A DNA stretch of 64,000 bases from an uncultured cyanobacterium (GCA_963710605.1 CAVQBA010000007.1:384001-448000), one strand, 5' to 3'; counted from the first letter of the stretch, positions 48,402-59,586 are shown. Notes: generated by a model from the letters alone, not told the origin. Numbers and translations: made by a program.

Positions 48402-50330
48402 ATGGTTAATATATCTCGTCGCAGTCTCCTCAAACTGTCTGCTTTTGTTAGTCTTTTTAGTTTAATTGGTTATTCTCGTATCGCCAAACCAAAACCAACA
48501 TTACATCGTTGGGATAAATTAGAATTGCCTCGTATTCTCAGCAAACCAAAAAAAGTAGTTGTTATTGGTGGCGGATTAGCAGGATTAGCCGCAAGTTACG
48601 AATTATCTCGTCGAGGTTTTGCCGTCACCTTACTAGAAAAAGCACCACAACTAGGAGGTAAAATTGCCAGTTGGGAGATAGAAGTAGGTGAAGATAAGTT
48701 AAAAATGGAGCATGGTTTTCATGGTTTTTTCCCTCAATACTATAACTTGAAAAGTATTGTCAAAGAAATTGACATCGAAAACAATTTTCAACCTTTAGAT
48801 TTTTACTCCCTAGTTTTCAAAGATAGCAAATACAAAACTGAAGAATTTCGCCCTAGTCACTCTTCTTTTCCTTGGAATATTGTTGATTTAGCTTTTTCTT
48901 CTCGTAATGCCCTCAAATGGGGTATAAATATAACCAATCCTGAACATTGGCGGGTGTTTCATGCTATCACTAGTTTTAGTATTCCTAAAAGTTATCGTTA
49001 TTTAGATGATATATCGGTAACTGATTGGGCGAATAGAGGTATTCCTAAAGGTTTATACGATTTATATTTCCTACCTTTTGCCAAATCCTCTCTTAATTCT
49101 CCTGATACTTTAAGTACTGGTGAACTGATGCAGTTTTTTCATTTTTACTTTTTTGGTAATCCCGAAGGTTTGGCTTTTAATGGTACGGTGGATGATATGG
49201 GTACTAGTTTGGTTGATCCTATTACCAAAGCGATCGAAAATAATGATGGTAAAATTATTACCGAAGCTACCGTTAGTAAAATTAATTATCAGGATAACAA
49301 AATCACCTCAGTTGAATATTATCAGGGTAATGAAGTAGGAAGTGTTGCCTTTTGGGTAGATAAAAATCCTTTATTAGCAGACGATGATTACGACTATTAT
49401 GGTGCAGGAGATAATTTATTCGCCGTCAAAAAAGAAACTAACGAAGCCTTTTCTTTAAGTTGTACTCATCAAGGTTGTACAGTTAATCATCAAGAAGATG
49501 GTAAATTTGTTTGCCCTTGTCATGGTGCAGTCTATGATAATGAAGGTAAAGTATTACAAGCACCTGCCCCTCGTAATCTACAAACTTATCAAGTAGTCGC
49601 CCAAGCCGAAAACCGTATCCAATTACAAAGTAATCAAACAACTGAAACGGCGAATCAAGCACATCAAACAATTGAAGCTGACTATTACGTGATGGCGGCG
49701 GATGTAAATGGTATTAAACACTTATTTGATTTAATCGAAACTGATAGTAGTAACTATCAACAAACAGTAACTCAAGTAGATAGTTTAGCATTAGCTGACC
49801 CTTTCGCTGTCGGGCGTTTTTGGTTAGATAAAGATTTTGCATGGGAAAACAGTAATTTTACTTCTTTATCAGGATATAGTTTGACTGATAGTATTAGTCT
49901 TTATCATCGGATTCAAACTGAATACAAACAATGGGCAGAAAAAACAGGTGGAAGTGTAGTCGAGTTACACGCCTATTGTTATAAAGAAAAAGAATTTCCT
50001 ACCCAAGAAGTTTTATTAGAAACATTTAGAAAAGAGTTGTTAGAAATTGTACCAGAATTAGCAGATGCCAAAATTTTACATCAAGAGTTAGTTAATCAAA
50101 AAAACTTTTCTGGTTATCCTCCTAATAGTTTTCCTCTTCGCCCCGAAACCAAAACCCAAATTAGTAATTTGATGTTTGCAGGAGATTGGGTAAAAATGCC
50201 TTTTCCTTGTGGTTTAATGGAAAGAGCAGTTAGTAGTGGTTTGTTATCAGCTAATGCTATTTTGCAGAAAGAAGGTTTGCAACGTCGAGATTTGTTTTCT
50301 GTCAATCCTTCGGGTGTTTTGTCGATTTAA
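48402..50330 (+). CDS. FAD-dependent oxidoreductase with inserted Rieske domain (CrtU/CruE-like carotenoid desaturase)
   Basis: GGGLAG, EHGFHGFF, Rieske CTHQGC and CPCHGA, FAGDWV...LMERAV; N-terminal SRRSLLK. Confidence 0.85.
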   Translation: MVNISRRSLLKLSAFVSLFSLIGYSRIAKPKPTLHRWDKLELPRILSKPKKVVVIGGGLAGLAASYELSRRGFAVTLLEKAPQLGGKIASWEIEVGEDKLKMEHGFHGFFPQYYNLKSIVKEIDIENNFQPLDFYSLVFKDSKYKTEEFRPSHSSFPWNIVDLAFSSRNALKWGINITNPEHWRVFHAITSFSIPKSYRYLDDISVTDWANRGIPKGLYDLYFLPFAKSSLNSPDTLSTGELMQFFHFYFFGNPEGLAFNGTVDDMGTSLVDPITKAIENNDGKIITEATVSKINYQDNKITSVEYYQGNEVGSVAFWVDKNPLLADDDYDYYGAGDNLFAVKKETNEAFSLSCTHQGCTVNHQEDGKFVCPCHGAVYDNEGKVLQAPAPRNLQTYQVVAQAENRIQLQSNQTTETANQAHQTIEADYYVMAADVNGIKHLFDLIETDSSNYQQTVTQVDSLALADPFAVGRFWLDKDFAWENSNFTSLSGYSLTDSISLYHRIQTEYKQWAEKTGGSVVELHAYCYKEKEFPTQEVLLETFRKELLEIVPELADAKILHQELVNQKNFSGYPPNSFPLRPETKTQISNLMFAGDWVKMPFPCGLMERAVSSGLLSANAILQKEGLQRRDLFSVNPSGVLSI

Positions 50331-50567
50331 TAAATCATTCAGATTAATATTCAATCAGAAAAAAAGCTAAATTTATCTGTTTTAAAACATTTTTGATTTT
50401 AAGTTTAAAGTTAACTTTAGTTAACGTATATGATTAGCCTTGAACTTAAGTTCAAGGCTCAAATAAAAGACTAAAATAAACCTCTCTTCTATTGTAGATT
50501 TTTCACAACCAAGAGATAAAGGAACTAATTATCTGATAAATTTGAGTGATGTAAGTGGGAAAAAAAG

Positions 50568-51320
50568 ATGGTGAAGCTACTTCCTTATCTCATCAAAAAA
50601 GCACTAGATGGCAGTGAAGAAAAAATTATCTTAAACAAATATAAATTAACTTTTGGGCGATATTCTGACAATGATGTGTCTTTACCAGAAAATGAAAACG
50701 ATCGTTGTTATATTTCTCGTCGTAAACATTGTGTTTTAGAGCGAGGCATCGGTGAAGAATGGTTTTTAACTGATACTAGCACGAATGGAACGAGTTTAAA
50801 ACCAGAAGGTGAACAAAGCGAAATTACTTTATTAAAAAAACAAAAAGTAGCGATCGGTAACGGGGATGAGATTTTGATTCATGGATATGTACTAACATTT
50901 TATGACCCTAATCGCACCGATCGTTTGCCAACAAAGTCAACTTCACCTCAAAAATCCAGTCAACCTTCTTTTACTACCCAACCGCCAGATAAGACATTTA
51001 TATACAATTTAAGTCAAACTAATTTATATAAAATAGCAGGTCAAAAACGGGAGCGAGTTCACTTAAATCCCAATGCAAGTAAAATGTTTAATTTCATGGC
51101 GAAAAAAAACTTTGATAATAATAATCAGCCTATTTTGTGTACCTATGAAGATTTAATTAAAGAAGTTTGGGGTGAAAAATCTTTCGATCGTAGTGAGGGT
51201 GATGTTCAAGATTTAGCCAAAATGATTCGAGATGCGTTTAAGAAGCATGATGGTAGTAAAACATTATTAGAAACCAAAAAAAAGCAAGGTTATATTTTAC
51301 ATATTATTTGTGAACCTTAA
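50568..51320 (+). CDS. FHA domain plus C-terminal OmpR-type winged-helix transcriptional regulator
   Basis: FHA motifs FGR, ISR.KH, STNGT; Pro/Ser/Thr linker; wHTH motifs TYEDLIKEVWG and LLETKKKQGY. Confidence 0.85.
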   Translation: MVKLLPYLIKKALDGSEEKIILNKYKLTFGRYSDNDVSLPENENDRCYISRRKHCVLERGIGEEWFLTDTSTNGTSLKPEGEQSEITLLKKQKVAIGNGDEILIHGYVLTFYDPNRTDRLPTKSTSPQKSSQPSFTTQPPDKTFIYNLSQTNLYKIAGQKRERVHLNPNASKMFNFMAKKNFDNNNQPILCTYEDLIKEVWGEKSFDRSEGDVQDLAKMIRDAFKKHDGSKTLLETKKKQGYILHIICEP

Positions 51321-51364
51321 TCAAAAAACTAGCATTTGTAATTTAGGTAATAATGCTACCTCGG

Positions 51365-51421
51365 TTTTCCATTGATTTTCTATGTACTATCCATCTAAAT
51401 CCTTTGTTTTTTTAATAAAAT
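51365..51421 (+). promoter_or_regulatory. triple 11-bp direct repeat plus -10 box upstream of the kinase
   Basis: TTTTCCATTGA/TTTTCTATGTA/CTATCCATCTA, then TAAAAT 18 nt later. Confidence 0.55.
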
Positions 51422-51610
51422 TAAACTATCGCAATTATTAGTATTATGAAGCAGGTATCGATCTCCTTAAATACTCCTTTCTGAAATCGAGTAGTAATAG
51501 CTTCTAGCGATTTTATTCTTTTTGAGAATGAAACAGTCCTGCTGCCTTGCCGAAGGAGGACTTGTTAACACAAACTGTTGCAAGTTTTATTTAAACTAGT
51601 ATTAAATGAA

Positions 51611-51719
51611 TATAGCAATTATCACCATTATGAAATACAAAGAAATCCCCCTAAATCCCCCTTTGTAAAGGGGACTTATTGATCATTAACTGTACCTCAC
51701 AAGTCTGGGAAACGCTATA
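51611..51719. mobile_element. 109-bp MITE-like element carrying a CCCCCTT/AAGGGG hairpin
   Basis: TATAGC...GCTATA ends with imperfect ~29-bp TIR; related element starts at 47229. Confidence 0.6.
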
Positions 51720-51814
51720 TATGAATACATTTTTTTATAAAGAGTTTTAAGCGACAAATATAAATTGCTATATATTAAAGTATAGAGAATAGCACTACAA
51801 CCATAGAATAAACG

Positions 51815-52969
51815 ATGAAAAGATTTCCCGATTATATTTTTGAAAATAATTTATTCGCCTCTAATTATTATCTTAAAAAATTCCTAGGTAGTGGGCAATT
51901 TGGAGCAGTTTATTTAGCAGATGAAGTAATAGATGGAAATAAATTTCGTGAGGTAGCTGTTAAAATTATTCAGAAATCTAATGATTCTATACATCAGAAA
52001 TTAATTACCCGTGAGTTGCAAATAGCTTGCAACTTAAACCACTCAAATATTTTGCAATGTTTCTGTCCAGTAAAAGGTTCTCTTGCCTACACTGATAATC
52101 AGACGAATCAAACGAGAATTAATTCATATAAAGGTTTGGTGATGGAGATTGCCTCACTCAGTTTGGAGAGTTATTTGAAGAAAAAACGACTTTCAGAAAA
52201 AGAAGTTCGAGATATAATTATTGAAATTACTGAAGGTTTAGCCTATTTGCATAGCAGAATTCCTCCTGTTGTACATAGAGATCTTAAACCAGCTAACATA
52301 TTACAGGTAGATGGAATTTGGAAACTAGCAGACTTCGGTATTGCTCGTCCTTTAGATAACGGTTCGATCGCTTATACTCAAGTAGTAGGAACGCCTCAAT
52401 ATATATCTCCAGAAGCATTAAAAGACGAGATAGTTTCAACAGCAGGAGATATGTGGGCTTTAGGTATTATTATTATTGAAATGCTTAGTGGACAATATCC
52501 CTATTCTTTATCAGGAAATTCGATACGGGTTTTATGTCAACGTATTAAAAATGAAAAACCTAATATTCCTCCTTTACCTGCTCCCTTCGATCGAATTGTT
52601 AAGAATTGTTTAGTTAAAGACCGAAAACAACGTTGGACTGCTCAACAAGTACTTGATGTTTTGCAAGAAACAGTAACAGTACCTAACTCTGTTACCACCG
52701 TAATACCGAATAATGATACTAATACAATAATACCTAGTGACTCGATGAGTCAAAAATCTAGCTCTACCAAGCCAACAAAAACGGTCGATCCTGACCTAAA
52801 AACACCTAGCAGATCGTCACAGACAGTTGTTGACTCTTCTTTTCCTCTTTGGCAAAAGGTCGCTATCTCGGCTGTTTTGATGGTGGGTATGATAAGTGGA
52901 ATTTCTGTTTTTTCAAGTTTACCTAATCCTTTTATTGAAAAAGAAGAAAGTCCTCGTCCTGCTTGGTAA
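51815..52969 (+). CDS. membrane-anchored Hanks-type Ser/Thr kinase
   Basis: GSGQFG, VAVK, HRDLKPAN, DFG, GTPQYISPE; S/T/P-rich linker; one TM helix; short C-terminal tail. Confidence 0.93.
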   Translation: MKRFPDYIFENNLFASNYYLKKFLGSGQFGAVYLADEVIDGNKFREVAVKIIQKSNDSIHQKLITRELQIACNLNHSNILQCFCPVKGSLAYTDNQTNQTRINSYKGLVMEIASLSLESYLKKKRLSEKEVRDIIIEITEGLAYLHSRIPPVVHRDLKPANILQVDGIWKLADFGIARPLDNGSIAYTQVVGTPQYISPEALKDEIVSTAGDMWALGIIIIEMLSGQYPYSLSGNSIRVLCQRIKNEKPNIPPLPAPFDRIVKNCLVKDRKQRWTAQQVLDVLQETVTVPNSVTTVIPNNDTNTIIPSDSMSQKSSSTKPTKTVDPDLKTPSRSSQTVVDSSFPLWQKVAISAVLMVGMISGISVFSSLPNPFIEKEESPRPAW

Positions 52970-53029
52970 ACACCTCAAACTGAATAAAAATATTTTTACT
53001 TTTATAACTCGTTATATTTATTAAAAACT

Positions 53030-53647
53030 ATGAAACCTACATTCTCTATCTCAAGCTTTTTTGTTTTATTTAGCACTTATTTCATCCTTCAGGGTTGCCA
53101 AAACTTTAAACAAACACAAGCAGCCACATCAGCGGAGTTCTATTGTGATGAAAAAAACTTGCAAACAAAAGTTGAATCACACTCATATGATAATCCACTC
53201 ACTGTTATTAATTGGAGACAAGATAATGATTACTTTGGAGATGAATGGACTCCGCTAAAAAGATGTCAAGAAGTTTCTCGTCGATTTCAAAATATCTACG
53301 AACGAGATGGCTTGAAGTATATTCAAACCGATCTTGCTCAATGGAAAGATAGAGATATAGCCATTGTCTGTAGTGTCAAAGTTAAGGATACTCGTTGTGA
53401 AGAAAACGATCTTTTGTTGACTTTAGAAAATAAAGACGACCCTAACCAAGTTTTAGGTGATTTAAAAGCTTTCAAAGAAAATCCAATCAATAACAGAGAA
53501 TTAACAAGAGGCGAAAATTCACCAAAAACTTTTTCCGAAGGTAAAAGAGATGTTTATGACATTGAAGAAATATTAAGTTTACCAGAACCACCAAAGCAGT
53601 CAGAAAACAATACTGACTCTTCTGAAACTCCAAAATCAGCATGGTAA
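53030..53647 (+). CDS. COP23-like lipoprotein
   Basis: Lipobox LQGC; FYC, INW, WTPLKRCQEVSRRFQ, IVC...C...LLLTL...DP pattern. Confidence 0.8.
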   Translation: MKPTFSISSFFVLFSTYFILQGCQNFKQTQAATSAEFYCDEKNLQTKVESHSYDNPLTVINWRQDNDYFGDEWTPLKRCQEVSRRFQNIYERDGLKYIQTDLAQWKDRDIAIVCSVKVKDTRCEENDLLLTLENKDDPNQVLGDLKAFKENPINNRELTRGENSPKTFSEGKRDVYDIEEILSLPEPPKQSENNTDSSETPKSAW

Positions 53648-53853
53648 TAAGATTGCTTTGAAAATTACTTAATAAATTGGACTAGATTCAAAAAACAAAA
53701 AGATAAATAGATAAAATTCCTGCTCATTCCTCAACCCCTCTGTTCGTGTCAAGCATCCCCTTACTATTCTCTTGTATCTAACCTTCAAAGAAAAAATTAG
53801 TGACTTACTCATAATAACGATTACTTTGTTTTGTGGAAATTGGTATCACTGTC

Positions 53854-53911
53854 TTTTCCATCTACTTTCCATCTGTTTTCTATTTCTTCTTCTGGTCGAT
53901 TTTGGTAATCT
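53854..53911 (+). promoter_or_regulatory. triple 11-bp direct repeat plus extended -10 box
   Basis: TTTTCCATCTA/CTTTCCATCTG/TTTTCTATTTC, then TGGTAATCT with the hexamer 19 nt later. Confidence 0.6.
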
Positions 53912-53949
53912 AAATAGGTAACGATCGATTTAAGAAACTGGAGATAAAA

Positions 53950-54177
53950 ATGAAAATTGCTGGTTTAATCATTAATATATTTTTTCCTGGTATTGGAACT
54001 ATAATGGCAGGAAAAACAACCCAAGGAATTATTCAAATTGTTTTAATCATCATTGGTATAATTTGTAATTTAACTCTTATTTTGGCAATTATTGGTATCC
54101 CTCTTTGTTTTATCACTTGGATTTGGGGAATTGTCAGTGCGGCGACTGCTCTAGAAGGTAACAAACCTGAATCTTAA
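53950..54177 (+). CDS. small hydrophobic membrane protein (TM2-like)
   Basis: IFFPGIGTIMAGK..QGIIQ plus two TM helices; GGAG RBS. Confidence 0.8.
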   Translation: MKIAGLIINIFFPGIGTIMAGKTTQGIIQIVLIIIGIICNLTLILAIIGIPLCFITWIWGIVSAATALEGNKPES

Positions 54178-54325
54178 CTTTGTTTCTCATAGTAAAAGTC
54201 GATCGCTAATTTTAGATATAGTGATACCAACTCTCACAAAATAAAAATACAGATCAATCCCCCTCTATCCCCCTCTATCCCCCTTTGAAAGGGGGAAGGA
54301 AGATAAGCAGATGCTTCGTTTTTGT

Positions 54326-54362
54326 GTCTTGGTACGCTCTTCCGTCAGTGGGATCGCACCGC
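54326..54362. mobile_element. 37-bp GTCTT-stem-GC hairpin element
   Basis: GTCTT-GGTACG...CGCACC-GC; a related host sequence lacking it occurs at 62462-62516. Confidence 0.6.
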
Positions 54363-54461
54363 TTTGGGAGGACTTGATGACCACAACTGTTGCTTTCTTT
54401 TATCTAAATTGGGATGAAATACTTTTACTCGCTTTATTTTACAATTTATGAAAAAAAAATT

Positions 54462-54680
54462 ATGTTAAGTCAAAGAGATTATAAAATTAAAAAAATAGGT
54501 CTTTATTTGTTGCTATTTTCTTTAGGATTAGGTTATTTAAAAGCGTTTTCAGCTTTAAACCTTTATAGCTTAACGAGTGACTATAGTTCAGTATTAATCG
54601 TACAATTTTGTACTCTTATTAGTGTTTTGGGTATCGATCGTTACAGAAAGAAAAACCTTAAGAACAAATTTTTAAAATAA
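54462..54680 (+). CDS. small two-TM hypothetical protein
   Basis: Two hydrophobic stretches and basic tail; start uncertain (54414 or 54462). Confidence 0.45.
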   Translation: MLSQRDYKIKKIGLYLLLFSLGLGYLKAFSALNLYSLTSDYSSVLIVQFCTLISVLGIDRYRKKNLKNKFLK

Positions 54681-54902
54681 GTTTTGATAAATGTTGTTTA
54701 AAGAAGAATTAACATATTCAACTAGTTAGTTATTTTGTCCTTTATAATTTTCTAAACACAAAGAATAATGCGAGTGGATTTGAGAATTTTAGTTTAAAAG
54801 ACATTTTTTGATTAGATTAAGACAGCCTAATCTATATTAATTAGCGATTGTAGCTTGAACTAGTAAACACCACATAAACCAATTATTTTCAAGGTAAAAA
54901 CG

Positions 54903-57900
54903 ATGAAAAAAAGATTCTCAAAATTTTTTAGATTACTTTTAGTTAGTTTAGCTGTTGTCGGTCAAGTTTCTTCTCTCAAATCTGTTCACGCCTCGATAGA
55001 CCTTATTCAGGCAAGGGAAGAATCCGATGAAACGATCGAAAAAAAGTTATCCGAGCAATTACAAGAGTTTGAAAAACTTGATGATTCGGAAGTAGAGCAA
55101 AAAAAAGAAATTTTATCTCAAATGTGTAGGGTTGAATTAAAATCCAGCAAAAAAGAAGTAAGTGTTGAATATTGCGATCGATTTATTTCTTTGTACAACA
55201 AAAACTCTAACTTAGAATTAGCCAACGAAGTATGTTCAAGTATTCCAATTCATTTAGAAAAGATTAAAAATTTAAAACAAGAAAGTTTAGAGACTGCTTT
55301 GAAAGCTTGTCAAAAAGTTATTTCAAATATTGAGACTGTAGAAGAGTCATCTCAATATCAATACTCATTTGTAGCCCTGTCAATAAATTTAAACAATCTT
55401 TTTAATCTTTTAGGAAAGTATTCTGAAGCCGAAACTTTTTATGAAAATTTACTAACCAACCTTGACAAACAGTTTAATCAAATTGGTAAAAATGAATCTG
55501 AATCTAACAATCCATTTTTTAATTTAGAATCCGCACAAAAAGAGTTTGCAGAGGATAAAATCTATACCACTCTCAACTTTTTGGGAGACATACATTTTGC
55601 TACTGAAAATTACAATCGAGCGATTGATTTTTACCTAAAAGCAGATCGAATTTATCAAGATGCGACTGAGAAATTCGAGGCTTTAGGCCCTTATTTTATG
55701 ATGGCTGACCCAATCCGTATAGTTGGAGTTGGTGGTGCAATATATTTTCCTTCCTATCTTCGAGCCAAAAGTTTTATTGGTAGTAGAGCTAGACTAGCCT
55801 ATGCTTTAGTAAAGCAGAAAAAGTTTGAAGATGCCAATAAATATTTAACTGAAGCTATTACTCAGTTAGAAATTGAATCTACAGATCAAATAAAAAAAGA
55901 CAATTCAATTGTTTTCCAAGAAATTGGATCACTTTTATACACCACACAACAATCTATATTTATAAATCAAAAAAAATATTCTCAGGCTCTGGAGCTTGCC
56001 GATCGTTCTCGCTCAATCGTTAATAATCTAGGTTTAAAAATAGGTGAAGAAGCTTTTACATACGATGAAATGAAAGCTTTAGCTCAAAAGCAAAACACTA
56101 CCTTTGTGGTTTATTCTATTCCCGATCGTATTCAATACGACTACAAAACTTTTACAGCCCGACAAAATAAAGTTTTTATTTGGGTAATTCAACCAAATGG
56201 CGATCTTAAGTTTGAACAAGTCGATCTTGATAGTAATTTAGCACAAAATAAATCTAACTTTAAAACGATAGTCAGTTCAGCTAACACAGAATTTACAGCT
56301 AAATTTTTAATAATTGGAGTTGGAATAATAGTTTTATTTTCTTTATGTTTAATCAAAAAAAATAAAGTTTCAACTGGATTAATCGGTATTATTCTCATAG
56401 CTTTATCTCTACAATCATGTAATAGCTTTCCAGCAAATCGGGGAACTTCACCACAATTAATATCAAGTGAAGGTGAAAACTTATCAGAATTAATAGAAAA
56501 CGCAGTATTAGAAATTATAGATCCTACTTTGGCAAAAGATGATGATTCGTCTAGACAAACAGAACAACAAAATGAAGAAAGTTTACAGACCCTTTATAAT
56601 ATATTGATTGAGCCGATCGCTAAGTTTTTACCTAACAATCCTGAAGAGCATATAGTTTTTGTGCCTCACCGTGGATTACATAATATTCCTTTTGCGGCTC
56701 TTAAAGACTCGAAGGAAAAATATCTGATTGAAAATCACACCATCCAAATATCGCCTTCATTGCAAACTTACCAAGCTATCTTAGAAAGAGCCGCTAACCG
56801 CATTACTTCTGGCGATGAATACTTAATTGTTGGCAACCCGATCATGCCAGAAGTCTCTTTTGGTGATTTTGGAGAGCCTAAACCAATCGCTCAGCTACCA
56901 GGGACAGAAATTGAGGCGAAAGAAATTGCTAAAATTTATGGAACAGAACCTTTAATTGGTAAAGATGCTACTGTAGATGCTGTAACCGATCGGCTTTTCG
57001 ATGCCAAAATTATCCACTTAGCAACTCATGCTTTTCTTGATGTTGGCTCATATAGGCGGTCGGCTTTTATTCTGACTCCTCATTCAGATGACAATGAGTA
57101 TCAAAAAGGAATTTTAGATACATACGAACTATACAATAATCGTTCACTTACCCAAATGGCTGTGCTAAGTGCCTGTGACACAGGATTAGGAATAGAGACA
57201 GTAGAAGGAAACTTGGGTTTAACCCGTCCTTTTCTTGTTTCTGGTATCCCTACAATTGTTTCTACCCTTTGGTCAGTTTACGACGAACCTACAACCGAGT
57301 TAATGATCGATTTTCATCATAGATTGACAACTACCTCTAACAAGGCACAAGCTCTGCGACAAGCAATGTTAGCTACCAAGGAACAACGTCCTGAACCCGT
57401 GAACTGGGCAGGTTTTATTCTGACAGGTTTAGCCGAACTTCCCGAACCTTCCCCATCGGCTCAAAAAGTAGTTGGTCAGATGGTATGTCGAAATCTTTTT
57501 AATACTAGTGAATTAGATGGAACCTCTAGAGACTTGTTATCGGCAACACTCGAATCATCTAATTCTGGCTTTGTTCTTTCAATGACTTCAGCAAATTTGA
57601 GAGGAAGTTCTAAAATCACAAAAAGGCAAGTAGATTTCAACAATCAGTTAGTCATACAAGAGGTAAGAAACTATTCTGAAGAATCAGATGAGTGGTATCC
57701 TTGGAATATATATCACGCTACCGAGAACGGAAATTCTCTTGAGATTAAACCTGACGGCTCTTTTTCTTTCGGTACATATGACACTAGTCGTACTATTTGT
57801 AGTTTTAAAGGCAAACTTGAATTTATCGGTGATACAGCTAGTAAGTTACAACGACTTCAGGTTTATGATAAATCTTCCCAAAGCAATGATAGCGAAACTT

Positions 57901-58094
57901 TAATAGTTAAAGCGGGTGATGGTGTTGCTAATCTTCGTTCTAGCCCTACTACTCGAGCAAGTTTAATCGCTAAAATACCGAATGGTACAGAGGTTGTATA
58001 TTTGAATCGAACCACCAATAGCTCTCAACAGCTTTGGTATGAAGTACGAGTAGATGGTCAAGTTGGATGGTTATTTTCTGGATTACTTGAATAA
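54903..58094 (+). CDS. exported TPR-CHAT (caspase-like) protease with internal TM hairpin and C-terminal SH3b domain
   Basis: Signal peptide; TPR-like helices; LYNILIEPI, IPFAAL, IIHLATHA (His), VLSACDTG (Cys), STLWSVYD, WAGF; SH3b ANLRSSP...WYEV..GQVGWL. Confidence 0.88.
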   Translation: MKKRFSKFFRLLLVSLAVVGQVSSLKSVHASIDLIQAREESDETIEKKLSEQLQEFEKLDDSEVEQKKEILSQMCRVELKSSKKEVSVEYCDRFISLYNKNSNLELANEVCSSIPIHLEKIKNLKQESLETALKACQKVISNIETVEESSQYQYSFVALSINLNNLFNLLGKYSEAETFYENLLTNLDKQFNQIGKNESESNNPFFNLESAQKEFAEDKIYTTLNFLGDIHFATENYNRAIDFYLKADRIYQDATEKFEALGPYFMMADPIRIVGVGGAIYFPSYLRAKSFIGSRARLAYALVKQKKFEDANKYLTEAITQLEIESTDQIKKDNSIVFQEIGSLLYTTQQSIFINQKKYSQALELADRSRSIVNNLGLKIGEEAFTYDEMKALAQKQNTTFVVYSIPDRIQYDYKTFTARQNKVFIWVIQPNGDLKFEQVDLDSNLAQNKSNFKTIVSSANTEFTAKFLIIGVGIIVLFSLCLIKKNKVSTGLIGIILIALSLQSCNSFPANRGTSPQLISSEGENLSELIENAVLEIIDPTLAKDDDSSRQTEQQNEESLQTLYNILIEPIAKFLPNNPEEHIVFVPHRGLHNIPFAALKDSKEKYLIENHTIQISPSLQTYQAILERAANRITSGDEYLIVGNPIMPEVSFGDFGEPKPIAQLPGTEIEAKEIAKIYGTEPLIGKDATVDAVTDRLFDAKIIHLATHAFLDVGSYRRSAFILTPHSDDNEYQKGILDTYELYNNRSLTQMAVLSACDTGLGIETVEGNLGLTRPFLVSGIPTIVSTLWSVYDEPTTELMIDFHHRLTTTSNKAQALRQAMLATKEQRPEPVNWAGFILTGLAELPEPSPSAQKVVGQMVCRNLFNTSELDGTSRDLLSATLESSNSGFVLSMTSANLRGSSKITKRQVDFNNQLVIQEVRNYSEESDEWYPWNIYHATENGNSLEIKPDGSFSFGTYDTSRTICSFKGKLEFIGDTASKLQRLQVYDKSSQSNDSETLIVKAGDGVANLRSSPTTRASLIAKIPNGTEVVYLNRTTNSSQQLWYEVRVDGQVGWLFSGLLE

Positions 58095-58713
58095 AATTTG
58101 AGTTTTAGTAAATCGAACAAGACATTATTTTTTTTACTAATTTCAAGAAGAACAAAAGTAATATTAAATATAAATAAAGTATGCTAAAGGAGTAAGGGCA
58201 GAATAATATTCTGCCCCTACAGTGGCTTGGTGATTTTTTAAAAAGATTGTGAAACCCGTGTGCTGTGGAAAATTTACAATCGAAAAAAGATGATATTTTT
58301 ATTCTTTATTTAATTGGCTAGTAAATTATTTTTTAAGCTAAATAAAATACTTAAACAAACCTTTTTTCTGTTCAAACTCTCTCGATCGAACTTGTGAGTT
58401 AAAACTATTAACCTCCTCTGCGTCCTCTGCGTTCTCTGCGGTTTTAAAAACTCTTAAAATTCAATACCTCAACAATTAACTTTAAGTAAATAAAATATAA
58501 CTATTACATTATAAAAGTTTAAACTTAACCTATTTCATGAATTCATTAAACATGAATATATATATACTTTTAGTTAATACAAAAGAAAAAATAAAGTTTT
58601 ATTTGTAATTAATAATACAGTCTATAACTTTTGGTAGATGACCATCACCGCAGAAAAAAAGATAATAAATCTAGATCAACAAAACTATATATAAAACAAA
58701 AAAAGAAAAAATT

Positions 58714-59586
58714 ATGGCAACTCAAGAGCGTCGTCCTACTCCTGATGATATACCACCACAACAGCTAGAATATTCTGCATCTCAAGCAGATATGACACCT
58801 CAACCTGATAGTGATTTATCTAACTATAAACCCGCAGGAAAACTAACTGGTAGAGTAGCTTTTATTACTGGTGCTGATTCAGGTATTGGTAGAGCAGTCG
58901 CGATCGCATATGCCATGGAAGGGGCAGAAGTAGCAATTTTCTATCATAGTAATGATGGAGATGCCGAACGTACTAAAGAAATGGTTAAAGAGATTGGTAA
59001 TAAAGATTGTTTGATTATCAAAGGTGATGTGCGTAAATATGAAGATTGTGAAAATGCGATCGCACAAGTAATTGAACGTTTTGGTAAGCTGAATATTCTC
59101 ATCAACAATGCGGCTTATCAAATGGTACAGAAAAAATTCGAGGATGTCACGATCGAACAATTTACTCGTACTATGGAAACAAACGTTTTTGGTTATTTTT
59201 ATATGGCAAAAGCGGCAGTACCTCATCTAAAAGAAGGTGATATTATTATCAATACAGGTAGTATTGTCGGTAAAATTGGTAAAGCCTTCCTCGTCGATTA
59301 TGCGGCTTCTAAAGGGGCTATACACACCTTTACTAAGTCTTTAGCTTTAAATTTAGGCGAACGTGGTATTCGTGTTAATGCAGTTGTACCAGGTCCTGTT
59401 TGGACACCTAATATTCCTGCGACTATGACAGCTAAGCAAGTTGATAATTATGACTCAGATGGTATTATCAAACGTACCGCTCAACCTGAAGAGTTAGCAC
59501 CTGTTTATGTATTTTTAGGTTCAGATGACGGTATTTTTGTAACTGGTGCACTTTATGATGTAACTGGTGGACAATTATCTGCGTAA
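58714..59586 (+). CDS. SDR-family oxidoreductase (general-stress type)
   Basis: TGADSGIGRA, NNAA, YAASK, VNAVVPGPVWTP. Confidence 0.93.
   Translation: MATQERRPTPDDIPPQQLEYSASQADMTPQPDSDLSNYKPAGKLTGRVAFITGADSGIGRAVAIAYAMEGAEVAIFYHSNDGDAERTKEMVKEIGNKDCLIIKGDVRKYEDCENAIAQVIERFGKLNILINNAAYQMVQKKFEDVTIEQFTRTMETNVFGYFYMAKAAVPHLKEGDIIINTGSIVGKIGKAFLVDYAASKGAIHTFTKSLALNLGERGIRVNAVVPGPVWTPNIPATMTAKQVDNYDSDGIIKRTAQPEELAPVYVFLGSDDGIFVTGALYDVTGGQLSA

Follow-up and report, generated by a model that had tools for sequence, protein, structure and literature searches.

A recurrent union of a kinase/FHA-winged-helix regulator pair with a COP23/exported-protease pair in cyanobacteria, a candidate envelope-to-transcription signalling unit

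In the PknH-EmbR pair of Mycobacterium tuberculosis a membrane Hanks-type Ser/Thr kinase phosphorylates a transcription activator in which an FHA domain and an OmpR/PhoB-type winged helix are united. The RcsF-Rcs, NlpE-Cpx and DegS-RseA-sigmaE pathways of Escherichia coli respond to envelope stress, their input being a lipoprotein or a periplasmic protease that reads C-terminal peptides (YxF-COOH in the case of DegS). Csx29 of the type III-E CRISPR 'Craspase' is a protease with tetratricopeptide repeats (TPR) and a CHAT domain (PF12770), and SH3b domains are commonly wall-binding. Here we describe a locus of six open reading frames (ORFs) from an uncultured cyanobacterium (GCA_963710605.1) that encodes a regulator with FHA and winged-helix domains, a Hanks kinase, a COP23-family protein, two small ORFs and a TPR-CHAT-SH3b protease. 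It lies within a stretch of 64,000 nucleotides (CAVQBA010000007.1:384001-448000, hereafter the window), part of contig C7 of an assembly of 3.93 Mb in 7 contigs. The locus is best understood as the junction of two conserved gene pairs, one of a kinase and an EmbR-like regulator, the other of COP23 and an exported protease. Their union is real and recurrent, and we infer that the two pairs are coupled.

The likeness to PknH-EmbR extends to the kinase and to both domains of the regulator. The window regulator differs in being FHA-first, in having no BTAD domain and in its size (250 aa, EmbR 388 aa); the EmbR-like SARP-FHA architecture (N-terminal winged helix-turn-helix (wHTH), BTAD, C-terminal FHA) is not found in it, so that it is no member of the SARP family, although it would, by analogy, work like EmbR. 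The window kinase is almost devoid of extracellular sequence, and here the pair stands together with COP23 and an exported protease. The resemblance to the Rcs, Cpx and DegS pathways is one of functional analogy only: a periplasmic lipoprotein and an exported protease would act on a membrane transducer and, through it, on transcription, with a C-terminal aromatic residue as a possible docking tag. According to Pfam the six window proteins have no PDZ domain, no anti-sigma or sigma factor and no histidine kinase; the transducer is of the Hanks type and the protease is caspase-like. With the TPR-CHAT proteases, Csx29 included, the window protease has in common that a CHAT domain, in which the His/Cys dyad is conserved, comes after TPR repeats, and it differs from them in its signal-like and membrane segments, its SH3b domain and its COP23 partner. 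No Cas7-11/gRAMP or CRISPR genes are present among the ORFs at 46-62 kb, and no Rfam family matched across 50000-58800.

The regulator consists of an FHA beta-sandwich (residues 1-112), a disordered Ser/Thr/Pro-rich linker (122-140) and a wHTH domain (about 144-249). Pfam recognizes FHA at 28-104 (35.1 bits) and Trans_reg_C at 186-244 (24.5 bits, just below the cut-off of 26.2); the latter model scores 46, 39 and 36 bits in the relatives from loci L008, L104 and L107. The AlphaFold (AF2) model (pLDDT 88.7) gives the C-terminal domain the order beta-sheet, three helices, hairpin. In family-profile searches of solved structures, the C-terminal half matched YycF/WalR (E 1.7e-9) as well as the DNA-binding domains of VicR, SaeR, RpaA and PhoB, and the FHA half matched the FHA domain of EmbR best (E 2.8e-13). 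Pfam, the profile matches and the AF2 topology therefore agree with the domains that an earlier note on this DNA had assigned, and the comparison with EmbR that it drew, with the domain order reversed, stands as well. In an alignment of 51 family members the GR, SRxH(C) and S-x-NGT columns, which we take to be the phosphothreonine-binding FHA residues, are at least 90% conserved. Exhaustive HMMER searching returned 141 representative clusters at E<=1e-3, 66 of them at <=1e-10; since most are 230-270 aa long and align end to end, FHA plus winged helix reads as a coherent family and not as a one-off fusion. The family is rare: 5 of 41 relatives have it, and a survey of 301 genomes from across the class, in which only 9 first-look candidates per genome were scored, detected it in 7. 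A quick IQ-TREE phylogeny (SH-aLRT only) divides it into two clades with a support of 99 each: one holds the L008, L104 and L107 members, with a trypsin gene near the L107 regulator, and the other the window regulator next to that of L009, a locus with a TPR-CHAT gene, DUF928 and a CHAT fragment. The association with proteases spans both clades and is therefore not limited to one regulator lineage.

The kinase has a Pkinase domain at residues 20-281 (182 bits) that keeps its catalytic motifs (VAVK47, HRD154, DFG173). It is followed, according to a hydropathy script, by a Ser/Thr/Pro-rich linker (about 285-345), one transmembrane (TM)-like segment (347-370) and a 14-residue tail outside. The full Hanks domain bears out the kinase call of the earlier note. 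Kinase and FHA-wHTH regulator are a conserved gene pair. Eleven regulator loci were compared in their context (10 kb on either side), namely the window, a paralogous locus on contig C4 with a regulator 28% identical to that of the window, and nine loci from other genomes. A Pkinase gene is present in ten of them and stands directly beside the regulator in six; the chance expectation is about 0.09 kinase per 20 kb (18 kinase genes in 3.93 Mb). The sole locus with no kinase, L105, has PP2C, FHA and VWA genes instead. The sensor parts of the kinases vary: an FGE-sulfatase domain in L009, L011 and L012, GUN4 in L010 and none in the window.

Two further features of these loci were seen. At L009:2530-5207 and L012:2645-9638 the regulator relatives stand beside genes of a diversity-generating retroelement (DGR; bAvd and reverse transcriptase) and FGE-sulfatase-fused kinases, whose C-type-lectin-like FGE-sulfatase domains the DGR is likely to target. 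In L009, L010 and L012 the immediate neighbour of the regulator is a small radical-SAM (Fer4_12) gene.

The COP23 protein of the window matches PF14218 at residues 37-159 with 84.4 bits, well over the curated cut-off of 27, as the earlier note had supposed. We take COP23 to be the circadian oscillating polypeptide of Cyanothece/Synechococcus RF-1 and the founder of PF14218; the window protein is like it in matching this family, and no role linked to proteases or kinases was found for it in the literature searched. The window protein has a signal-like N-terminus with a lipobox-like FILQGC (read by eye) and a low-complexity C-terminal tail, and would be an exported, lipoprotein-like protein. All 54 aligned COP23 proteins start with a hydrophobic stretch; Cys39 and Cys79 are invariant in them and Cys114 and Cys123 at least 90% conserved. 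The core is modelled by AF2 with pLDDT >84 for residues 30-150. Neither Foldseek against the PDB (best E 0.21) nor VIA-align against 48,161 chains (best Z 3.2, rmsd 2.6 over 48 residues) gave a usable match for this fold, which does not show it to be new.

The protease of the window has TPR repeats recognized by Pfam around residues 161-321, in a TPR region of about 160-460, a CHAT domain at 559-842 (207 bits) and an SH3_3 domain at 1008-1062 (45 bits), which bears out all three of its domain calls. Its catalytic motifs are HLATH705 and SAC758; His705/His709 and Cys758 are invariant in 26 CHAT relatives, and full-length orthologues are 40-53% identical. Its N-terminus is signal-like (read by eye) and a hydrophobic hairpin (461-511, hydropathy script) separates the TPR and CHAT halves. 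Because of the signal-like and membrane segments and the SH3b domain, the protein is probably extracytoplasmic. Read by eye, residues 461-525 comprise a TM segment and, after a short basic loop, another segment that resembles a lipoprotein signal (...KKNKVST...LSLQSC); the protease may have arisen from two exported proteins by fusion, or processing may cut it in two. The same internal TM and lipobox-like segment is present in a paralogous TPR-CHAT gene on contig C6 (L016:8536-11452; C6 about 221.5-224.5 kb), which is split by a frameshift near C6:222417 that displaces its CHAT part, either because it is a pseudogene or by an assembly error. The opposite strand of that locus encodes an RTX-repeat protein of 1189 aa together with an acyltransferase of the HlyC family.

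COP23 forms a conserved gene pair with an exported protease. We surveyed one genome per genus (that with the fewest contigs) in 26 genera, taking 6 kb on either side of every PF14218 match over the cut-off; with neighbouring matches merged, and with one 156-bp contig-edge fragment and two sub-cut-off matches excluded, 87 loci resulted, 86 of which hold a COP23 ORF. ORFs were called greedily (longest ORF) and labelled with local HMMs, for which domains verified by Pfam in this genome served as seeds and which were iterated on the loci. At 34 of the 86 loci, in 16 of the 26 genera, COP23 has a protease of the trypsin-like, CHAT or C14 kind next to it or fused to it. The share of proteases falls with gene distance from COP23 (38/166, 12/157, 4/141, 1/126 and 0/223), that is, from 23% of the nearest ORFs to 0.3% at four or more genes. 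All 33 trypsin-like nearest neighbours match Pfam Trypsin_2, with His, Asp and Ser invariant, and 11 of them have TPR repeats; as a control, 50 unassigned same-strand neighbours of COP23 share no family in more than two members. Each of the five COP23 genes of this genome has a protease or kinase gene next to it.

The protease that usually accompanies COP23 is trypsin-like, and CHAT is a minority variant: of 75 loci with generic TPR-CHAT relatives, only 1 has COP23 alongside. In the CHAT subfamily to which the window protease belongs, searched with only three candidates per genome scored, COP23 directly precedes the protease in three of three cases (the window, the C6 paralogue and genome G283, there with a gap of 75 bp). 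Complex prediction for COP23 (30-205) with the TPR (31-460) and CHAT (525-900) parts of the protease scored 0.00 and 0.00, which speaks neither for nor against binding.

That COP23 is merely a clock-controlled membrane protein of unicellular diazotrophs, with a function unconnected to that of its neighbours and in a cluster with no common role, we consider very improbable. Cyanobacterial COP23 papers on diel and N2-fixation transcription, in the parts available, suggest an expressed gene, and long-class COP23 (at least 240 aa) has a downstream protease in only 3 of 28 cases. The copy of the window, however, belongs to the short class, in which a protease follows on the same strand in 23 of 67; its nearest relative, the C6 copy (36% identity), is likewise by a TPR-CHAT gene, and no COP23 copy of this genome is without a protease or kinase neighbour.

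All four part types, regulator, kinase, COP23 and exported protease, occur together in three of the 11 regulator loci: the window, the C4 paralogous locus and L104, which belongs to a genome of another order. The C4 locus has kinase and FHA-wHTH regulator on one strand and COP23 followed by a trypsin-TPR gene on the other. In L104 a single strand carries the kinase (402 aa, tail-anchored as in the window), COP23, two trypsin-TPR lipoprotein-like proteins and the FHA-wHTH regulator, with gaps of 21, 258, 47 and 32 bp. The chance of a COP23 gene in a 20-kb window is about 0.025 (about five COP23 genes per genome). Homologues thus co-occur elsewhere, whereas their never doing so was among the grounds on which the earlier note would have counted its idea refuted: the kinase pair recurs in ten of the 11 loci, and the four-part set reaches another order. 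In the COP23 survey, 9 of 86 loci, from 9 of 26 genera, have a kinase or FHA gene adjacent to COP23, and 16 have one no more than two genes away; such genes make up 19 of 323 ORFs at a distance of one or two genes and 8 of 490 farther away. A set of COP23, FHA-WD40 and Hanks kinase recurs in this genome (L015:6070-13114; C4 about 484-491 kb) and in two more genera that belong to its family (L021:5807-7838, L030:5942-8007).

The window itself has the six ORFs on the + strand exactly at the coordinates first given (Table 1), which confirms the co-orientation that had been noticed. COP23 starts 60 bp past the kinase stop and, because this gap is so short, the two are probably co-transcribed. The spacer between regulator and kinase contains two copies of a dispersed repeat, the second of which ends in a GC hairpin (51656-51674) with a terminator-like match (51658-51673), and probably splits the regulator transcript from that of the kinase. 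The repeat is built of a doubled ATCCCCCT core, then CCCCCTTTG..AAGGGG forming a hairpin at its end, and some copies are scored as terminators; a REP/MITE-like element is its probable nature. The boxes that had been taken for shared promoters are copies of it and, because the doubled core ATCCCCCT..ATCCCCCT has 65 matches and the hairpin form 38 in the 3.93-Mb genome, they are not locus-specific promoters. Promoters are not assignable, since the matches of a sigma-70/terminator consensus scan do not exceed those of shuffled sequences (promoter-like 32 versus 33.1, terminator-like 4 versus 4.4).

Table 1. Coordinates of the features of the locus, of the COP23 loci of the same genome and of further proteins with Trp- or Phe-ending tails (window positions where no contig or locus is named).
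Feature	Position	Strand	Length	Remark
FHA + OmpR/PhoB-type winged-helix regulator	50568-51320	+	250 aa	
Spacer	51321-51814		494 bp	two dispersed-repeat copies, 51428-51490 and 51612-51674
Hanks-type Ser/Thr kinase	51815-52969	+	384 aa	
COP23-family protein	53030-53647	+	205 aa	
TM75, small membrane protein	53950-54177	+	75 aa	
Third dispersed-repeat copy	54224-54296			hairpin 54278-54296 (repeat search)
ORF TM88	54414-54680	+	88 aa	
TPR-CHAT-SH3b protease	54903-58094	+	1063 aa	
COP23 locus	window			kinase upstream, then TPR-CHAT-SH3b protease after COP23
COP23 locus	C4:1305 kb			COP23, then trypsin-TPR
COP23 locus	C4:470 kb			COP23, then C14 caspase-DUF2808
COP23 locus	C4:486 kb			FHA-WD40, then double COP23, then kinase
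COP23 locus	C6:224 kb			COP23, then TPR-CHAT
Trp/Phe-tail example	L104:14598-15134	-		
Trp/Phe-tail examples				COP23 of L031, L023, L051, L039, L045, L062, L063, L087
Trp/Phe-tail example	L077:1137-2156	-		trypsin gene
Trp/Phe-tail example	L062:6593-7516	+		trypsin gene
Trp/Phe-tail example	L185:8737-9396	+		

The position of the cluster between housekeeping loci held for one side only: of 12 genomes from the same family, all were found to have the upstream amine-oxidase/Rieske gene and none the downstream SDR gene. A same-genus contig ends about 100 bp past the amine-oxidase/Rieske gene, and a clean insertion of the cluster could not be shown from synteny in five relatives. A Rieske-domain oxidoreductase adjoins the FHA-wHTH gene both in the window (48402-50330, amine-oxidase and Rieske) and in L104 (8379-9788, Rieske and PaO), which may be a coincidence.

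Several observations weigh against a coupling of the two pairs, and some of them favour the view that two independent modules lie side by side by chance in a variable genome region. COP23 is missing from 8 of the 11 regulator loci, which have kinases with FGE-sulfatase or GUN4 and DGR, radical-SAM, PP2C or VWA genes as neighbours, and an FHA-wHTH member is present at 0 of the 86 COP23 loci, where the weak matches are response regulators, FHA-WD40 and Zn-ribbon-FHA proteins. In the window long, repeat-bearing spacers part the genes: 494 bp with a terminator-like hairpin between regulator and kinase, and 1255 bp with two unrelated small ORFs and a repeat between COP23 and protease. Synteny downstream of the conserved amine-oxidase/Rieske gene is not kept, neither the cluster genes nor the window's downstream genes being found after it in the five relatives examined. 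Beyond this, a single genome accounts for two of the three four-part loci, and the 75 generic TPR-CHAT loci have no kinase within two genes and no FHA-wHTH member. The survey counts are approximate, owing to greedy ORFs and local HMMs, and related genomes are not independent; the biochemical role of COP23 is a guess, its fold matching nothing solved. On the other side stand the gap of 60 bp between kinase and COP23 in the window, that of 21 bp in L104 within a five-gene same-strand block that ends in the regulator, a frequency of COP23 at regulator loci (3/11) that greatly exceeds the 2.5% or so to be expected for 20 kb, a paralogous locus that repeats the set with a different protease fold, and the enrichment of COP23 by kinase and FHA genes. 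We hold the chance juxtaposition to be unlikely.

We propose, with a probability of roughly 0.5, that the locus is an envelope-to-transcription signalling unit made of two conserved gene pairs. The proposal starts from gene content, domains, catalytic motifs and conserved neighbourhoods; all physical contacts in it, the direction of the signal and the stimulus are inferred. By analogy with PknH-EmbR, the membrane-anchored kinase would autophosphorylate on Thr, probably in its Ser/Thr-rich juxtamembrane linker; the FHA domain of the regulator would dock on this phosphothreonine, the regulator itself would be phosphorylated or released, and its OmpR-type winged helix would then alter transcription. 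Since it has only a 14-residue tail outside, the kinase itself cannot sense. On the periplasmic side COP23 would be a recognition or regulatory subunit, or a substrate, of the membrane-tethered TPR-CHAT-SH3b cysteine protease, and this pair would supply the input of the kinase. On the whole the observation of the earlier note was largely right and is partly confirmed, and its interpretation is partly supported; nothing bears on its suggestion of damage, predator or phage sensing, a generic kinase domain being all that PADLOC matches.

COP23 is also fused to its partners. Pfam confirms Trypsin_2-COP23 (L055, L056) and C14-COP23 (L049) fusions, and beta-helix proteins (DUF1565/NosD-like) are fused to COP23 at L057:5002-6462(+), L058:5940-7346(-) and L060:318-1748(+), and the domain is therefore not limited to protease partners. 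The idea that COP23 might be a pro-domain at the N-terminus of the proteases fused to it was rejected, as it is C-terminal in every fusion (Pfam). It occupies the slot that TPR, WD40, DUF2808 or SH3b fill in related exported enzymes, which favours a role in recognition or targeting over that of a class-specific inhibitor. The latter role is called for if the exported protease serves as a weapon or for self-destruction: with its SH3b domain it would attack competitors or the envelope of its own cell, COP23 would be the immunity protein or inhibitor that shields the producer, and kinase and regulator would control expression only. Such a reading, which seems to us improbable, gains from the position of COP23 immediately upstream of protease genes, with gaps often tiny or overlapping (-118 to +67 bp in 14 of 26 pairs) as in enzyme/immunity arrangements, from the several paralogous pairs per genome and their patchy distribution, and from the kept catalytic residues of the proteases together with an SH3b domain of a commonly wall-binding kind. 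The fusions, however, and the COP23 genes beside kinases with no protease fit a recognition module better than an immunity protein, and a single domain would need to inhibit three unrelated catalytic folds. Moreover, COP23 is not like any solved inhibitor in fold searches, which found no usable match, and in PADLOC-DB 2.0 only the kinase has matches, to generic models (mad6, PD-T4-6), the other five of the six proteins matching nothing.

A small domain of unassigned function whose gene persistently neighbours those of trypsin-like peptidases has been described before: Trypco1 and Trypco2, the trypsin co-occurring domains of the MoxR-vWA ternary conflict systems, share these traits with COP23 (Kaur et al., eLife 2020, PMC7159879). 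Those systems are cytoplasmic and NTPase-centred, whereas COP23 proteins have signal peptides and conserved cysteines and make up a separate Pfam family. In the main texts of PMC7159879 and of its 2021 follow-up PMC8195603, two surveys of caspase/trypsin conflict systems by the Aravind group, the name COP23 is not used once. In the titles and abstract openings of the literature searched we found neither a link of COP23 to proteases nor an FHA-first winged-helix family, and no description of the combination, in agreement with what the earlier note had said of its novelty.

The kinase and COP23 of the window end alike, in ...EESPRPAW and ...SETPKSAW. As the two tails use different codons, their likeness is not a DNA duplication but one at the protein level. 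Only 40 of the 3167 ORFs of at least 90 aa in this genome end in Trp; in the COP23 sample, 13 of 95 COP23 ORFs do so and 21 of 819 others. The COP23 of L104 ends in ...SPKPLW, other COP23 proteins in ...LPRRAW, ...KPVPLW and ...GGTIW, that of G283 in ...QSAF, and two neighbouring trypsin-like proteins in ...RPRRAW and ...PELLW. The shared ...P(K/R)xAW tail that had been pointed out is therefore real in the window and recurs on COP23 elsewhere. Such tails, flexible, rich in Pro, Ser and Gly and ending in a hydrophobic residue and Trp (or Phe), are present in many genera on COP23 and on some neighbouring proteases. The tail may be a docking or sorting tag, and in both window proteins it would be on the outer side of the cytoplasmic membrane. 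Carboxylate-clamp TPRs offer an analogy for the reading of tails by TPRs, and our guess is that a TPR domain could be the reader here; the kinase and COP23 tails could compete for one such reader.

The two small ORFs between COP23 and protease had been counted among the parts of the system, and this we do not uphold, since they are not conserved members: neither was seen in related loci. Neither TM75 nor TM88 matches Pfam or NCBIfam. TM75 has six homologues (51-67% identity), one named by its source a TM2-domain YozV-like protein, and belongs to a real family of small membrane proteins, with no relative in any related locus fetched. For TM88 no relative was found by tblastn in this genome or in the fetched loci, large protein databases not being covered, and it is unsupported both as a gene and as a member of the system.

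A wider and doubtful extension of our proposal, of which we are far less confident, makes COP23 the founder of a widespread extracytoplasmic adaptor domain of cyanobacteria, which would gate or target exported proteases of three unrelated folds, trypsin-like, CHAT and C14, and hand their state to tail-anchored Hanks kinases and FHA proteins, the flexible ...(K/R)x(A/L/V)W-COOH tails on COP23, on some proteases and on the window kinase serving as docking tags read by the TPRs of the proteases. If this were true, the COP23 system would be a eukaryote-like-kinase counterpart of the envelope surveillance by RcsF, NlpE and DegS.

The locus puts a known signalling logic into a new combination, its newest element being the link of COP23 to proteases and kinases. 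For COP23, hitherto a Pfam family and a name with no mechanism, the neighbourhoods and fusions give a testable link to exported proteases and Ser/Thr-kinase signalling. The FHA-winged-helix family would be a compact EmbR-like output of Hanks kinases outside actinobacteria, where such transcriptional outputs are poorly known. The three four-part loci, five genes in L104 and four core genes in the window, offer a small system in which to ask how a kinase with no sensor part may receive a periplasmic signal.

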